A stretch of 64,000 bases of DNA from IMG/VR virus record IMGVR_UViG_3300047321_000298, positions 1 to 64,000 of that record; one strand, 5' to 3'. Below the pieces are notes generated by a model, which worked only from the letters and a program-made list of their open reading frames with translations, searched no databases and had not been told where the DNA came from. Position 1 is the first letter of the stretch, and each line of letters begins with the position of its first letter. Shown in pieces: positions 2,878-45,702 of the stretch. Position numbers and translations under genes: made by a program. Origin of the DNA: a virus (taxonomy: Duplodnaviria > Caudoviricetes).

Positions 2878-5292
2878 TTGCTCGTTCAAATCACGAACGC
2901 GGGCGCAGCTTTGCTCGCAGCAAACTCAGGACCGATTGAACTGTCAACGTTCAAGCTGGGTTCTGCATACGGGTATATCCCGGAATCAACAGACACGGAT
3001 ATTCACGGTACGCTCGTCAATACCGGTGCCCCTTCATCGTTCCAGGTGATTAACGCGAATGTCTTCAAATATTCCGTTTATCTGGATTACGATCTTGGAC
3101 CGTTTCAGTTTGGTGAGCTTGGACTCTTCACGACGGACGGTGTGCTGTTTGCGCTGGGTTCAAACTCGGTGCTCCTGAACAAGCAACCTGAATCGGCTGG
3201 TGTGTTTTCGGGTAACTCGATTCGTCTCGATATCTATCTGTCGATTGTTGGTCAGAATTACGCGATGTGGTTGGACTATGCATCGTCATCCAACAATTTT
3301 CAGATGGCAGTCTTGCAATCAGTGGACAGCTTGCCGCCACCGCAGAGTGCTACACCCAACGCCTACATCATCACGGGCGCGTCTTCGAGTCAGTCATCGT
3401 TTATGGCGTACACGTCGCAGACGGGACTCTGGAATTTCGACTGCTATCAGTACGCTAATCAGGCGGCTGCGACGGTCACGGCATTCACTCCGAATTCGAT
3501 CACGATTTCGCAATCTCAGTATGTGCCGGGAATGTCACCAGCGTATCCGGGTGCGACGATCATCGAGTTTTCGAGCGGTGCGCTGTACGGGATTTGTCGC
3601 TACGTAGCGAACGTGACGTTGAGCGGCGGTAACGCAGTGCTCACGTTCGATACCCCGCTGATGTTGACACCGAAAGTAGGGGACACGGTACTAGCGTTCG
3701 GGCGTCAGGCGCTGAGCACCACAATCCCTAACCTTCCGATTGCAACAACGTCATCGCTTGGTGCCGTGGTTGTTGGGGATACGCTGACGGTCACTTCAGG
3801 AGGTCTGCTGAACGTTAAGCCTACCTCTTATCCAGTGCTGTCGGTGAACGGTATGACGGGTGACGTTGTGCTGCACGCCACCGACATTTCGGGCTTGGCG
3901 ACTGTCGCAACGACCGGTTTGTATTCATCGCTTATCGGAACCCCGACTCCGTACGCGTTGCCGGTCGCGACATCGTCAACGCTCGGAGGTGTAAAGGCTT
4001 CTGCGGATGGCAACCTGACGATTGGCCCCACCGGGATCATCGATCTTGGGTTCTCGCCCGTCAAGACTGTGAACGGCGGGTCTCCGGACGCGGCCGGAAA
4101 TGTGGCGGTCGTGTTACCCGCTCCCGTGGGACTCGTTAACCCAACGGCCATTGATGCAGGCACCGACTTCAACACACTGAAAACGTGCGGCTTGTACTTC
4201 GGTCTGGATGCGAACGCTGCATCGTTTGTGAATGCGCCTTCGACAGCGGCCGGAGGCACGCTGGACATCGAGCCGTTCACAACATCCGCAACTGGCGGTG
4301 ACGTGATTCAGCGTTACCAGATGTCCAATGCGCTGTTTTTCCGGCGCTACACGCAAGCGTCAAACACGTGGTCAACCTGGACTCAGGTGTCAACGAGTTC
4401 TGCGCTTCCGATTGCGTCAGCTTCGACACTGGGCGGTGTCATGGTTGGAGCAGGGCTGTCTGTTACAGGGGCGGGTGTGCTCTCGGCAAATGTTAAGAGC
4501 GTCAACGGACAAACAGGAATCGTGGTGTTGGACGCGAGTTCAGTCGGTGCTCTTCCTTCAGATGTTGTGAACATTCCGGGCGGAGTGCCCTCGCTCGATA
4601 TCAATACCGGGACTTCAAACCCCGATACCGACGCATACACGTATGGCCGGTTGCCGTTCTATCAGAACACCTTGGGCGACTGGTTCAACGCAGGGAAGTG
4701 GGATGCGTCAGCGAACCACGTGATCCAGTCACACACGGGCAACACGACAGCGGACACGAATACGTCACTGGCTTCCGGTGGACTGCAGACGATTGACATA
4801 TCGTACAACGGCAAGGGTGTTACGGGTCTTTCCAATCCATCCTACGAGGCGGTCAACGCTGAGGGCATGGTCTATGAGGTGAGCGTCGCTGGAACCACAG
4901 CGCTGGATGGAATTAGCACGTGGAATGTGGGCGATTTGGTGGTGTGCATAAACGGCGCGTGGACCCGGATTCAGTCGGGCGCGGCTGCAAATTCGCTGAC
5001 ATCGAATAGCAGTTGGTATCGCACGAACCCGGACGGAACCTTGGAGATTGGCGGTCACCATGTAATGACGGCGGGTAGTACGACGACGACCATAACGCTG
5101 CCTGTCACTATCGGTACCTATCTCAGCGGCTTGGTCACGGATATAGGCACGTCATGTTTCTCTGGAGGAATTGCGCCACTCAGTTCGACGCAAATCACGC
5201 TTTACGCACCTGCGTACTGGCTGGATAACACAGGGACTGCCGTTGCCCGTGGCGACTTCGATATGCAATGGCGCATCCTGGCTAAACCTTAA
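2878..5292 (+). CDS. Baseplate-anchored tail fibre protein
   Basis: N-terminal ITNAG..GSAYGY..GPFQFGELGLF anchor (P2 gpH/DUF3751-like), LPxAT..LGGV repeats, central DFNTLKTCGLY knob-like motif, C-terminal WYRTNPDGTLEIGG (gp53-like tip). Confidence 0.85.
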   Translation: MLVQITNAGAALLAANSGPIELSTFKLGSAYGYIPESTDTDIHGTLVNTGAPSSFQVINANVFKYSVYLDYDLGPFQFGELGLFTTDGVLFALGSNSVLLNKQPESAGVFSGNSIRLDIYLSIVGQNYAMWLDYASSSNNFQMAVLQSVDSLPPPQSATPNAYIITGASSSQSSFMAYTSQTGLWNFDCYQYANQAAATVTAFTPNSITISQSQYVPGMSPAYPGATIIEFSSGALYGICRYVANVTLSGGNAVLTFDTPLMLTPKVGDTVLAFGRQALSTTIPNLPIATTSSLGAVVVGDTLTVTSGGLLNVKPTSYPVLSVNGMTGDVVLHATDISGLATVATTGLYSSLIGTPTPYALPVATSSTLGGVKASADGNLTIGPTGIIDLGFSPVKTVNGGSPDAAGNVAVVLPAPVGLVNPTAIDAGTDFNTLKTCGLYFGLDANAASFVNAPSTAAGGTLDIEPFTTSATGGDVIQRYQMSNALFFRRYTQASNTWSTWTQVSTSSALPIASASTLGGVMVGAGLSVTGAGVLSANVKSVNGQTGIVVLDASSVGALPSDVVNIPGGVPSLDINTGTSNPDTDAYTYGRLPFYQNTLGDWFNAGKWDASANHVIQSHTGNTTADTNTSLASGGLQTIDISYNGKGVTGLSNPSYEAVNAEGMVYEVSVAGTTALDGISTWNVGDLVVCINGAWTRIQSGAAANSLTSNSSWYRTNPDGTLEIGGHHVMTAGSTTTTITLPVTIGTYLSGLVTDIGTSCFSGGIAPLSSTQITLYAPAYWLDNTGTAVARGDFDMQWRILAKP

Positions 5293-5310
5293 TTCAAAAC
5301 GGGGATTGAG

Positions 5311-5679
5311 ATGAGCAGACTGAAGTTGATAGCGCTGTGGTTTCTGGTCACGCTGTTCATGCCACTGTTCAGTGTTGTCATGCTGATCCAAGCGGTAGTC
5401 GGATCGCAGAGCAGAGCCAAAAATATGGCGTTAGCTCAAGACGAATGTGGAAACTCGATGTTCGGGGGACCTTCAACACAGACGATGTCCTCGCGAGTTG
5501 GGGACGGTCTGATAGAAGGTAAAAGGTGGGCCAAGATCGTCGGTCCTGTTATCGATTTTTTATTCGGAGCCGGACATTGTTTGTCGAACGTCGATCTTGG
5601 GGCCGGTCTACTGACTGCGGCACAGATGTCGGAAGTAGATGCAGCAGATAAAGAGCAGGGACTCCCCGCTCAATACTAA
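5311..5679 (+). CDS. Hypothetical phage protein with N-terminal hydrophobic segment
   Basis: SD GGGG/GAG; motif ALAQDECGNSMFGG..QTMSSRVG resembles small tail-fibre-linked phage proteins. Confidence 0.55.
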   Translation: MSRLKLIALWFLVTLFMPLFSVVMLIQAVVGSQSRAKNMALAQDECGNSMFGGPSTQTMSSRVGDGLIEGKRWAKIVGPVIDFLFGAGHCLSNVDLGAGLLTAAQMSEVDAADKEQGLPAQY

Positions 5680-5684
5680 AAACG

Positions 5685-5723
5685 AAGGCCCCAAGCAATC
5701 CTCTGCTTGGGGCCTTTGTCTTT
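5685..5723. terminator. Bidirectional intrinsic terminator
   Basis: 13-bp stem AAGGCCCCAAGCA/TGCTTGGGGCCTT with A-run before and T-run after, between convergent genes. Confidence 0.85.
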
Positions 5724-17097: not shown

Positions 17098-17126
17098 TTG
17101 ACGAAATGTGCAGCAACTGCTAAATT
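17098..17126 (+). promoter_or_regulatory. Sigma70-type promoter with TGTGCA spacer motif
   Basis: TTGACG-AAA-TGTGCA-GCAACTGC-TAAATT (17-bp spacer) at the head of the accessory array. Confidence 0.6.
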
Positions 17127-25812: not shown

Positions 25813-25840
25813 TTGACGGTTTGTGCAGGACCTGTATAAT
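25813..25840 (+). promoter_or_regulatory. Sigma70-type promoter with TGTGCA spacer motif
   Basis: TTGACG-GTT-TGTGCA-GGACCTG-TATAAT (16-bp spacer). Confidence 0.7.
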
Positions 25841-25882: not shown

Positions 25883-26125
25883 ATGAGCAAATTTACTGAC
25901 CAGTTTGACGCGGTGGTGGCGGCGTTGGATAGTGCACCATTCGCCGCGCAAGTTGCTTGGGATTCAGCAAGTTGCCATGCTCAAAACGTTCTTGGTGGCG
26001 AAGCATGCAAGTGGGAAACGGAGGCATTCAAGGAATACGTTGTCGGCTGCGTTGACCAAGCTTCGTACTTTCAGGAAAGCGCTGAGGCACGGGAGTTTTT
26101 CGAAGAGTTCGGTATCTTTGGCTGA
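25883..26125 (+). CDS. Hypothetical acidic protein
   Basis: SD GGGG; first gene after promoter. Confidence 0.55.
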   Translation: MSKFTDQFDAVVAALDSAPFAAQVAWDSASCHAQNVLGGEACKWETEAFKEYVVGCVDQASYFQESAEAREFFEEFGIFG

Positions 26126-26135
26126 GGGGAACGGG

Positions 26136-26525
26136 ATGGACGGAAAGATTCTTGCTGTGGATGTGTGCTCTGATCTGTACGTAGCGGGCCGCACGGAAGA
26201 CGGTGAGCAGTACACGGCTGAGGTTTATCTGGTGTGCGCTGAATTTGCGGACGGTTCCGTGTACGCGCACGTCGAGCGCTTCAAGGGTTGCAAGGTCGAA
26301 CAGGTCGATACAGAAGATGAGTCGTTCACCGCGTTCGTTGACATCCGTGAAGAACAGAAAGCTAAGGCCGAGAAACTGGCTGCGCGTGTCAATCAGTGTG
26401 TGGCTACAGGCCGCAAGCTCGATCCGCAGTTCTGGACGTTTCATCGCACAGTGTACGGGTCTTCAGCCTACCTCCACGAAGTTGCAGAAATGACGCCACG
26501 CCAACGCGCGGGCGAACCGGATTAA
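26136..26525 (+). CDS. Hypothetical protein
   Basis: SD GAGGGG, ATG 26136. Confidence 0.55.
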   Translation: MDGKILAVDVCSDLYVAGRTEDGEQYTAEVYLVCAEFADGSVYAHVERFKGCKVEQVDTEDESFTAFVDIREEQKAKAEKLAARVNQCVATGRKLDPQFWTFHRTVYGSSAYLHEVAEMTPRQRAGEPD

Positions 26526-26536
26526 GGGAGTAGCAG

Positions 26537-26764
26537 ATGGGTATCAAGTACGCCGTAGAGCAGCGCCTTCGCTTCATTGATTTTTTGGTGTCTCACTACG
26601 GCACGATCAACAGGGAAGCGCTCACCGACTACTACGGTATCTCGTTGCCTCAGGCGTCTGACGACATCGCTGAGTACAAAAAGATGGCACCGAATAACAT
26701 CATGTATGACAACACCAAGAAGACCTACGTACGGGGCGCACTGTTCGCGCGGGTGTGGGGCTGA
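26537..26764 (+). CDS. Stand-alone winged-HTH of the CapW/BrxR (WYL regulator) type
   Basis: EQRLRFIDF..HYGTINREAL.DYYGIS.PQASDDIAEY..MAPNN..YD..KKTYV matches the recalled N-terminal domain of CapW-like WYL repressors; no WYL/WCX domains follow. Confidence 0.75.
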   Translation: MGIKYAVEQRLRFIDFLVSHYGTINREALTDYYGISLPQASDDIAEYKKMAPNNIMYDNTKKTYVRGALFARVWG

Positions 26765-26796: not shown

Positions 26797-27204
26797 ATGA
26801 AAATAAATAATCCCTTTCCCATAGAGATTGACGAACTGATGGCCCAGATGGCTGCGTTCGAGGAAGCCAACACGAAAGCGTGCATGGGTCCCGCACAACG
26901 TAATCACGGGTTTCTGCTGCAAGGCACCTGGTCGCAGGCATACGTAAGTCAGGAGGTGTCGAGTCGTTTTGTCGGCTGGGTCATGGCATCGCACGCGAGC
27001 GGACGCAGTGCCTTGCCTGAGCCCGGAAGTGCACGCGATCTGCTGCGCTGGTTGAAGAAGTACGAAAGTGTCCTGTCCAGTAGTCTGCTAGCGATGGAGG
27101 CTTCGAAAACTGACGCTGAAATACTGGAAGACTGTAGGGGAATGCTCGAAGCGTTGCGCGAAACAATTAAGGTTGCGGAGAGCGGAGCTACCGCGAGTCA
27201 CTGA
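26797..27204 (+). CDS. Hypothetical protein
   Basis: ORF in co-oriented array; start uncertain (26755-26838). Confidence 0.5.
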   Translation: MKINNPFPIEIDELMAQMAAFEEANTKACMGPAQRNHGFLLQGTWSQAYVSQEVSSRFVGWVMASHASGRSALPEPGSARDLLRWLKKYESVLSSSLLAMEASKTDAEILEDCRGMLEALRETIKVAESGATASH

Positions 27205-29061: not shown

Positions 29062-29263
29062 GTCGCAACCAGCACAGGCACAGGTGAAGCTGACGGAGAT
29101 TCAGCAGGCCATTGCCGACTATCACTTCGCTCTCGACACTCGCGCCCACGGCGGGGTTGCTCAGGACCGCGCGTTCAATGCGATTTGCAACGTGCTGGGC
29201 ATGCACTGGAAACAGGGGGAGGAATTTGATCGACGCGCCAGAATGACGACGAGGATTGAATGA
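29054..29263 (+). CDS. Hypothetical protein
   Basis: Overlapping start; IADYHFALDTRAHGGVAQ motif. Confidence 0.55.
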   Translation: MNESQPAQAQVKLTEIQQAIADYHFALDTRAHGGVAQDRAFNAICNVLGMHWKQGEEFDRRARMTTRIE

Positions 29264-29673
29264 AGGTATCTGAATTGACCGGCGCAACGCTGGATTACTG
29301 GGTCGCCCGAGCCGAGGGCTTCAAGCGAGCCGATGGGCATTCTGACCCGATGGCGTTGCAGTTTCCTGCCGGAAGCCTGTACGATTTCCAGTTCGGCTAC
29401 ACAGCGCCACCGTTTTCGAGCGCCTGGCGATATGGCGGCCCGATCATTCAGCGCGAGAACATCGGCTTTCGTCGCGAGCGCGGACTGGACGGTAGTGAGT
29501 ATTGGGCCGCAGTGGTTGACCAGTTGTATCTGCATGAGCAGGACATCTATCAGGGCGGCGCTAATGAGTTCGGCCCTACACAGCTAATTGCCGCGATGCG
29601 TGCTTGGGTCAAAAGCAAGTTTGGTGAGACCGTCCACCTGGACACACAAGGGGAAGTGACGCCCACTGACTGA
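29260..29673 (+). CDS. NinX/DUF2591-family phage protein
   Basis: MKVSELTGATLDYWVARAEG..FSSAW..GGPII.RE.I..GPT.LIAAMRA.V.SKFG pattern. Confidence 0.75.
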   Translation: MKVSELTGATLDYWVARAEGFKRADGHSDPMALQFPAGSLYDFQFGYTAPPFSSAWRYGGPIIQRENIGFRRERGLDGSEYWAAVVDQLYLHEQDIYQGGANEFGPTQLIAAMRAWVKSKFGETVHLDTQGEVTPTD

Positions 29674-34652: not shown

Positions 34653-35162
34653 CTAGTTGGTCGCTTCCGCTTTCAACTGAGGGCCGAACGACAGGGGCAG
34701 CGGGTCGGCTGCTAGCTCGGTGTTCTTCTGCTCGACCCACAAGCGTAGCTGCGCGGTGTTAGGTGCATCGTAGGACAGCGTGAGATGCGCACGGTAGTCC
34801 GGGAACGAGTGCTGCAACCCTTCACCCAGCAACTCGGAATGCAGCCGCTGTAGGTCCGGAGAATCGATGCACGCAACGAGCACCGGCCGCTGCTTGTGAT
34901 CGAGCCACACCTGCAGGCTAGTCACTGATCCCTTGCACACGCGATCTGCTGGCGGCTTCACACCGAACGGAAGATCATGCTTGTGGTAAAGCACCGTCAC
35001 GTGAAAATCCGTGGAGTGGTTCGGCTTGAACGGTGCACCCGCCAGAAAGTTGCGCAGACTCAGGATCGACTGCTCATCCGGATCGGCCCACACGTAGAGT
35101 CCGGAGCCCGAATCAGCCTCCCGGATTTGATCGTAGAGAATCTGCGCTTCTATCTTGAACAT
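34653..35162 (-). CDS. acb1: Acb1-like (T4 gp57B family) 2H phosphoesterase, anti-CBASS candidate
   Basis: Two HxT motifs (FHVTVLY, AHLTLSYD) plus SGLYV, LQVW, VLV..DS..L..LH and G..H.F.DY..H.TLSY blocks collinear with recalled T4 gp57B. Confidence 0.8.
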   Translation of the reverse strand: MFKIEAQILYDQIREADSGSGLYVWADPDEQSILSLRNFLAGAPFKPNHSTDFHVTVLYHKHDLPFGVKPPADRVCKGSVTSLQVWLDHKQRPVLVACIDSPDLQRLHSELLGEGLQHSFPDYRAHLTLSYDAPNTAQLRLWVEQKNTELAADPLPLSFGPQLKAEATN

Positions 35163-44580: not shown

Positions 44581-45702
44581 TCACCCTGACGTATAGGGGG
44601 TATTCACACCTTGGCGAACACCCAAAATCTTTTCTGCGTATTGAGCACCAGTCACCAGAAGCGAACGACCGCCCACGATGTACGTACCTGAGTACGCTAT
44701 GTCCTGCTTGTTCACATCGGAGTCCACGGCAAACGTGAACGTATCGAGAAGCCTGAACGTCGTAGGCGTCTGGATCAGAAACTCGACATCGAGCGAATAC
44801 AGATTCGCGATGCGCATGTTCTGGTAAATCGCGCTCTCATAGTTCGCATGCGTGTTGCCTACGTCGATCCCCCCGAACGACTGATATCCCCGCGCGACGG
44901 TCTGCTTAACCGTTGAGTTGAAGAGGGGACTTGAAACGTCGGGCGAGAACGTGACCTGTTCGTTCGCTGTACTAAGATTCGCGCCGACCATAGATTGCGC
45001 ATATCGGGTGTTCTGATACCCCGTCATCTTGTTTGCGATCCCCGATTTCGCTTTCGGGTTGTAGTCGGCTGCTGTGTAAGCTCCAGACTGATACTCGCCA
45101 AGAATCACTGTCTGCGTCGGTCCCGGAAGCTTCGTCACGTCGCGATAGACCATTGATCCATCGGGATTGACGCCTAGCTCCATATACGAGGTTGCTGATG
45201 CATAGCCACGACGCTTTATGATGTTTGCAAACTCACCGTACGTACGATTGCGGGGCATCCATAGCTGTGCGTCGTTTGTTGAGTCTCCAGAGAACGACAT
45301 TCCGCATTTGCTTGCGATCTGCTGGAGCGCGGCGCTTGACGTACCCTGAATTCCACCTATCGAGGTGCCCGCCCAATACAGAGGGAGGTCCAGATATCCA
45401 TCCACCTCGTAGGTGAAGCCGTTACCGTTGAAATCCTTCGTATGGTGAAACTTCCGGAAGTTGTAGGTAACGGTAGGAGAAGCCAGCGGTTTCAGCGTTA
45501 TGCGCAGTGGTATGCCGTCCTGAAGCTCAAGCTGATCGAGCGAGTGCAAACCATCGAAGATGGAGAAGTGACAGAGCGGCAGGATTCCACGCGTCCACCA
45601 ACTGATCTTGAGGAAGTTGAGCGTGTTGATCGATTCGAGCGGAAATTCCTGATTGTTTATGAACAGCGATACTTCAATTTTCCCCTCAACAACGTATCCC
45701 AT
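44581..45702 (-). CDS. Baseplate hub protein (gp27-like)
   Basis: Position immediately before spike gene; size and composition. Confidence 0.6.
   Translation of the reverse strand: MGYVVEGKIEVSLFINNQEFPLESINTLNFLKISWWTRGILPLCHFSIFDGLHSLDQLELQDGIPLRITLKPLASPTVTYNFRKFHHTKDFNGNGFTYEVDGYLDLPLYWAGTSIGGIQGTSSAALQQIASKCGMSFSGDSTNDAQLWMPRNRTYGEFANIIKRRGYASATSYMELGVNPDGSMVYRDVTKLPGPTQTVILGEYQSGAYTAADYNPKAKSGIANKMTGYQNTRYAQSMVGANLSTANEQVTFSPDVSSPLFNSTVKQTVARGYQSFGGIDVGNTHANYESAIYQNMRIANLYSLDVEFLIQTPTTFRLLDTFTFAVDSDVNKQDIAYSGTYIVGGRSLLVTGAQYAEKILGVRQGVNTPYTSG

Follow-up and report, generated by a model that had tools for sequence, protein, structure and literature searches.

A stand-alone CapW/BrxR-type winged helix in a jumbo phage as a possible signal-blind occupant of host defence operators

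Why would a phage carry only the DNA-binding head of a bacterial repressor such as CapW or BrxR, which silences anti-phage defence genes? The question is raised by a 75-aa ORF of IMG/VR record IMGVR_UViG_3300047321_000298, for which a first-pass annotation of the sequence had proposed a sensor-less CapW-type winged helix-turn-helix (wHTH) protein, perhaps a locked-off repressor of host defence operons. The record is a complete virus genome of 245,517 bp with direct terminal repeats, and the window that we analysed is its first 64 kb (64,000 nucleotides). Because the large terminase is 60–62% identical to those of Ralstonia phage phiRSL1 and Burkholderia phages BcepSauron and BcepSaruman, the phage is, on sequence, a phiRSL1-like jumbo myophage whose host probably belongs to the Burkholderiales.

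The 75-aa protein is genuinely homologous to the winged helix at the N-terminus of CapW and BrxR. In a phmmer search against PDB chains, residues 2–68 align without a gap to the N-terminal wHTH of P. aeruginosa (Pa) CapW (7tb5, 6e-15), which bears out the N-terminal match that had been claimed. Further matches are to S. maltophilia (Sm) CapW (7tb6, 1e-9) and BrxR (7qfz, 3e-9), with weaker ones to R. leguminosarum (Rl) CapW (9c5g, 3e-7) and Acinetobacter BrxR (7t8k, 1e-3). An AF2 model of the protein (pLDDT 94.9, order H-H-H-E-E) superposes on the CapW and BrxR heads with TM 0.84–0.95 and rmsd 0.7–1.5 Å in Foldseek, with TM 0.84–0.93 for CapW (7TB5, 7TB6, 9C5G) and 0.92–0.95 for BrxR (7QFZ, 7T8K/7T8L); the next-best fold, at E 2e-2, lies four orders of magnitude behind. 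Thus the profile and structure comparison that had been suggested as a check matched both regulators. Scans of the protein against Pfam, PHROGs and PADLOC were blank because the Pfam copy used lacked the newer model PF26109 (WHD_BrxR). That model is annotated on every homologue, and ESM Atlas gives the same name.

The head is close to that of CapW in sequence. It is 45% identical to Pa CapW in the Foldseek alignment and 51–52% identical to full-length relatives from uncultured organisms and Burkholderiales. Mutation of R32, S42, Q45 or S47 abolishes operator binding by Sm CapW (PMC9122588); the ungapped alignment places R26, S36, Q39 and S41 of the phage protein at these positions, so that all four tested contacts are kept, and their equivalents are invariant or nearly so across the family of short proteins described below. 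The arginine (Sm R32) is specific to CapW and is no feature of BrxR. With BrxR the phage head shares the fold and the Pfam head family; in contrast, its sequence matches are weaker, BrxR's SRQQ base-reading motif is absent, and the short-family position matching BrxR's base-reading R38 is variable.

Everything beyond the head is missing. Rl CapW is laid out as wHTH (1–70), linker (71–136), WYL (137–193) and WCX (193–297) (PMC11662680), and the phage ORF ends five residues past the wing, at the wHTH/linker boundary. The first-pass annotation had put the stop where the WYL domain would begin: the sensor is indeed absent, whereas the boundary was misplaced, a 65-residue linker being lost as well. 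Its statement that there is no downstream remnant holds for the whole 245-kb genome, which a 303-aa full-length relative matches only through its own residues 13–80, without trace of linker or WCX; profile PF13280 (WYL) reaches at best 12 bits over 20 positions there, below its cut-off of 21.8. A sensor split off into a separate gene was rejected, as neither the next ORF downstream (26797–27204) nor the rest of the genome holds a WYL domain. CapW and BrxR dimerise through the linker (domain-swapped), WYL and WCX. The phage head has none of the three, neither linker helices nor the WYL ssDNA sensor nor WCX, and hence lacks the known dimer contacts.

The gene itself is well formed. It occupies 26537–26764 on the plus strand and encodes, from an ATG start, a stand-alone CapW/BrxR-type winged helix (PF26109 WHD_BrxR in Pfam 38.1) with recognition helix at residues 36–50, wing at 55–66 and a family-specific tail, F70-x-R72-V-W74. 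The good Shine-Dalgarno sequence noted earlier reads AAGGGAG (26524–26530, plus strand), lies six bases 5' of the ATG and overlaps the TAA of the upstream ORF. The gene is the third after a near-consensus sigma-70-type promoter (25813–25840, plus strand; TTGACG-16-TATAAT, 11/12), the best promoter-like site within 22.5–34 kb. Between the two stand plus-strand ORFs of 80 aa (25883–26125; no Pfam, PHROG or PDB match) and 129 aa (26136–26525; phrog_1507, function unknown), and the operon continues with an ORF of 135 aa (26797–27204, plus strand) without WYL or other known domain. No operon neighbour matches a known defence or anti-defence family in Pfam or PHROG. As the promoter is of near-consensus sigma-70 type, the wHTH gene is presumably transcribed early, by host RNA polymerase. 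A P22 NinX-family protein is encoded in the same accessory array (29260–29673, plus strand; PF10765 E 2e-17, phrog_4389).

This promoter is one of about 29 copies in the genome of a family TTGACG-N3-TGTGCA-N6-GTATAAT, found only in the present phage and its close relative IMGVR_UViG_3300046463_000548. The extended consensus, which is strongly conserved, is GTTGACG-TTY-TGTGCA-N6-GTATAAT-CG-NTTCTGT, in which the spacer has a fixed TGTGCA and the -10 is followed by TTCTGT, and nearly all copies lie on the plus strand, in the window at 17098, 22980, 25813, 33529 and 37681 and outside it at 89085, 109495, 127337–146051, 169997–171606 and 204536–223320. We considered TGTGCA as a site of the wHTH protein and found no support, the element being confined to this phage lineage. 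The only palindrome in the spacer of the 25813 copy is one of 9 bp, CAGGACCTG.

Is the short gene a recent truncation, or a protein in its own right? A word-based search returned 25 clusters of 73–84 aa that are 53–73% identical to the window protein and share its end point. That search found no longer relatives; an exhaustive profile search of 1.84 billion representatives did recover them (2,184 matches, 178 re-scored). The best 50 of the 178 re-scored matches are all head-only, and full-length forms of about 290–305 aa begin lower. All 39 IMG/VR viral loci encode short forms (about 73–85 aa) that end 0–10 residues past the match. Six of 19 loci in bacterial genomes are short too, at least three of them on contigs that are also in IMG/VR as proviruses (P. 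nodosa, Paraburkholderia sp. C35 and Luteimonas terrae); 12 of the other 13 are full-length or longer CapW/BrxR-type forms, and the last, a mere 20-residue local match, is an unrelated protein. ESM Atlas clusters of WHD_BrxR proteins of 71–79 aa are 83% and 65% viral. A literature search turned up no description of head-only CapW/BrxR proteins of phages, and databases give them automatic names only.

Short and long forms differ consistently. Short forms (71–85 aa) stop right after a tail F-x-R-[VIL]-[WYF], to which the window protein conforms, and both stop position and tail motif are conserved over about 90 clusters. A column-by-column comparison shows that DNA-facing residues are kept in both forms. 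Long forms have W (100%) at the position of window H20, R (90%) at L17, E/D at Y21 and P at R72; the short family has lost these helix 1 and tail residues, and its signature is a hydrophobic residue for R, no Trp, Tyr for E/D and Arg for Pro. The two forms cluster apart on a tree, where the label short or long changes 7 times and shuffling gives 26.9 changes, and an AU test (p 0.21) does not reject one common origin for the short forms. Pairwise dN/dS within the short family is 0.06–0.40 (median 0.17). The gene thus belongs to an old, mostly viral head-only family under selection and is no recent truncation. The loss of long-form residues suggests that the short forms have long been adapting to the absence of the partner domains. 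Of the original description as a sensor-less CapW wHTH and locked-off repressor, the structural half stands, as a CapW-type wHTH without sensor encoded by a selected gene.

The family is also widely dispersed. Its carriers span GC 30–68%; among them are proviruses, genomes with DTRs and five further records of 187–315 kb, with backbones as diverse as jumbo phages, P22-like and Mu-like phages and integrase-bearing proviruses, and the short protein is common to unrelated phages at 50–70% identity. One cultured carrier is Stenotrophomonas phage Sonora, whose gp088 is 62% identical. PHROG and Pfam tallies of 141 flanking proteins reveal no recurrent family; these proteins include a primase, a polymerase, a portal, a tail sheath, transposases, an integrase and, twice, a Lar-like restriction-alleviation protein. 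A conserved partner gene was rejected, the sole widely shared cluster being the short gene's own antisense shadow ORF. On unrelated backbones and with no conserved neighbour, the short gene is a wandering accessory gene, a pattern typical of mobile genes with a target that is not phage-specific. In the Paraburkholderia nodosa provirus (L005), the gene with the Lar-like domain occupies 4936–5715 and precedes the short gene by two genes on the upstream side, and the same PHROG occurs at a second locus.

An anti-CBASS gene is present in the same genome, as the first-pass annotation had stated. An Acb1-family phosphodiesterase is encoded at 34653–35162 on the minus strand (PF23474 E 2.7e-17, 63.3 bits against a cut-off of 27; phrog_755; also 2'-5' RNA ligase superfamily), 8 kb from the wHTH gene and on the opposite strand, in a tail operon. 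The further suggestion that the short protein complements Acb1 fails as a general link, Acb1 being present in only 2 of 36 other short-gene records.

If the head reads DNA as CapW does, which sites would it prefer? The short family has the same recognition helix, S-x-PQAS-x-D, as a PQAS subfamily of full-length proteins, and a common architecture, GWATA-N5-TATWC, recurs upstream of full-length relatives. The published E. coli CapW site, CGTATAATAATGCTACG, fits this architecture (PMC11662680), and BrxR half-sites, spaced 5 bp, agree with it (PMC9122601). In an independent Burkholderiales sample, the six closest full-length genes share the helix S-[IV]-PQAS-x-D; an exact GTATA-N5-TATAC lies at -54 to -57 of three of them, and a fourth has the operator with one mismatch. 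Over independent loci, with up to one mismatch allowed, the operator occurs at 4 of 10 with the PQAS helix (3 exact; shuffle mean 0.35) and at 6 of 51 with other helices (Fisher p 0.049, a small test), the motif having been read off some of the loci on which it was first scored. An exact palindrome common to all full-length relatives was sought and rejected: at most two loci share one, and the motif is limited to the PQAS-helix subfamily. The same helix also occurs in regulators whose operators differ in their flanks.

Phage DNA is not enriched in such sites. The whole phage genome has one GWATA-N5-TATWC site against 0.15 expected, and its half-sites occur about as often as expected or less (GTATA 59 against 58, TATAC 47 against 57). 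In the flanks of 38 short genes, near-matches number 20 where 32 would be expected, none of them exact; no CapW-type inverted repeat was found upstream of short genes, and no GWATA-N5-TATWC lies near the wHTH gene. It follows that, if the helix reads DNA as suggested, the specific sites of the head would not be on phage DNA. The sole exact site in the genome, GTATAGGGGGTATTC at 44591–44605, is probably a chance occurrence; it sits at the 3' end of a tail-region ORF on the minus strand.

Potential targets are not rare in the presumed host order. A WHD_BrxR gene is present in 47 of 401 sampled Burkholderiales genomes, and the five closest full-length regulators adjoin defence operons divergently: an E2-E1-JAB system in three cases, Wadjet JetABC in one and a SAVED-nuclease CBASS effector in one. 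In the three E2-E1-JAB cases (L131, L132 and L133, from genomes G500, G578 and G558), the CapW-like regulator has an exact GTATA-N5-TATAC and is divergent from a two-gene unit of a 397–403 aa protein (no Pfam match, weak LmuA-like PADLOC match) and a 751–777 aa E2-E1-JAB fusion. The Wadjet case (L134, genome G791) is a CapW-like regulator divergent from a complete-looking jetABC operon, so this class also controls anti-plasmid systems in Burkholderiales. In four of five host genomes with a short-gene prophage, no full-length relative was detectable with the query used. A host match in the lysogen Paraburkholderia sp. C35 was uninformative, both forms being present with different recognition helices.

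What, then, might the head do? The reading that we prefer, with a little less than even confidence, is that the wHTH protein occupies host defence operators and is blind to the signal. Such a role, the functional half of the original description, agrees with the retained contact residues, the PQAS-type helix, the lack of enrichment of its operator in phage DNA, the spread of the gene over unrelated backbones and the CapW-type regulators of defence operons in the Burkholderiales. The head would sit on host CapW-type operators, at 5-bp half-sites GTATA and TATAC five bases apart, over the -10 of a defence promoter. Having no WYL domain, it could not respond to ssDNA, the signal that otherwise ends repression, and the damage- or infection-triggered rise of defence proteins such as CBASS would be blocked. 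In setting out this course we infer DNA binding, a preference for these half-sites, early timing, a host target and a benefit to the phage. Published work speaks for a host target: WYL derepression raises defence dosage and so overwhelms phage inhibitors (bioRxiv 10.1101/2025.11.13.688357), and induction through CapW is part of what blocks prophage induction (PMC11662680). Only tentatively do we extend the proposal to the family at large, which would then comprise signal-blind immune-repressor mimics in many phage lineages, with which the inducible or priming arm of systems such as CBASS, BREX and Wadjet would be blocked.

Several published properties bear on how well a lone head could work. 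CapW dimers bind at only 0.3–3 µM (PMC9122588, PMC11662680), and the heads of full-length CapW move 13 Å apart upon ssDNA binding (PMC11662680); hence neither head holds the other, and one on its own may be a weak, low-specificity monomer. In favour of a lone head, a single arm of the inverted repeat is enough for binding and repression by BrxR (PMC9122601). WYL repressors do not act on one another's operators (bioRxiv 10.1101/2025.11.13.688357), so that one head would silence few systems. Repression may also be too slow to matter within one lytic cycle.

The same evidence can be read in other ways. The main rival, that the protein is an ordinary phage transcription factor acting on the phage's own genes, for instance by shutting off early promoters, seems to us on the unlikely side. 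A monomeric head that recognised GTATA as a half-site would cover part of the -10, GTATAAT, in many of the approximately 29 early promoters: GTATA is present in the -10 of 13 of the 29 copies, CapW operators likewise overlap a -10 (PMC9122588), the wHTH gene lies in an early-type operon, and HTH or wHTH factors of their own are found in most jumbo phages (PMC7824862). Against this, the promoter family is limited to one phage and its close relative, whereas the protein is common to unrelated phages; GTATA and TATAC are unenriched in the genome, and no full palindromes were found; and neither a neighbour nor a nearby operator is conserved over the 38 loci. A more local role, that of an Aca-like autorepressor damping the strong promoter of its own anti-defence operon, is very improbable. 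The gene's place as third after a near-consensus promoter, behind two small ORFs of unknown function, would suit it, as would the Lar-like restriction-alleviation gene that adjoins two relatives, yet the promoter is not a dedicated one but belongs to a generic set of about 29, short genes have no CapW-type inverted repeat upstream, the wHTH gene is not the last of its operon, and its neighbours match no known anti-defence family.

Interference at the protein level is improbable as well. Each head packs on the WYL domain of the other protomer in full-length dimers (PMC9122588, PMC11662680), and a phage head could conceivably dock on the WYL/linker surface of host CapW or BrxR, or compete for operators without repressing. 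The helix 1 W, R and E/D that probably make the head–WYL contact are, however, the residues lost from the short family, and a derepressed defence operon would harm the phage. As for a non-functional remnant of a captured capW gene, the ORF does span only a quarter of the parent architecture. Stop and tail motif are nonetheless conserved over about 90 clusters with dN/dS of 0.06–0.40, and the gene has a good Shine-Dalgarno sequence, a place in an operon and no remnant downstream; in practice, family-wide conservation refutes this reading, which we regard as excluded.

Among known systems, CapW, a CBASS-associated repressor, and BrxR, a repressor of BREX and defence islands, come closest. With CapW the phage protein shares the winged-helix fold, the S-x-PQAS-x-D helix, the CapW-specific arginine and the three other tested contacts; it differs in having lost the helix 1 Trp, Arg and acidic residue conserved in full-length forms, and its gene sits in an accessory operon, with no operator at its own promoter, rather than divergently from a defence operon. 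The same differences apply to BrxR.

Aca proteins are small stand-alone HTH autorepressors of phage accessory operons that have a strong promoter and move among unrelated phages. The phage head is like them in size and stand-alone form, operon type, promoter strength and mobility. It differs in HTH family and in neighbours that are no known anti-defence genes, and no CapW-type inverted repeat was found at its own promoter, whose spacer holds the 9-bp palindrome.

Were host operators indeed its target, the head would be a matching counter-move to the WYL-driven rise of defence after DNA damage or failed infection, and the first known case of counter-defence by imitation of a defence regulator. 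Were it instead a phage transcription factor, the family would exemplify the domestication of a host regulator head. In either case head-only proteins are small and cheap to express, and the GTATA-N5-TATAC consensus of the PQAS-helix subfamily offers a concrete probe for a host- or a phage-directed reading. A further arrangement appears in a Bryobacterales MAG (L052), where three tandem 17-bp units, TTTTTATACTAGCATAG, lie about 60–110 bases upstream of a full-length CapW-like gene; each unit carries a near-operator, and the array may be a multi-site operator.
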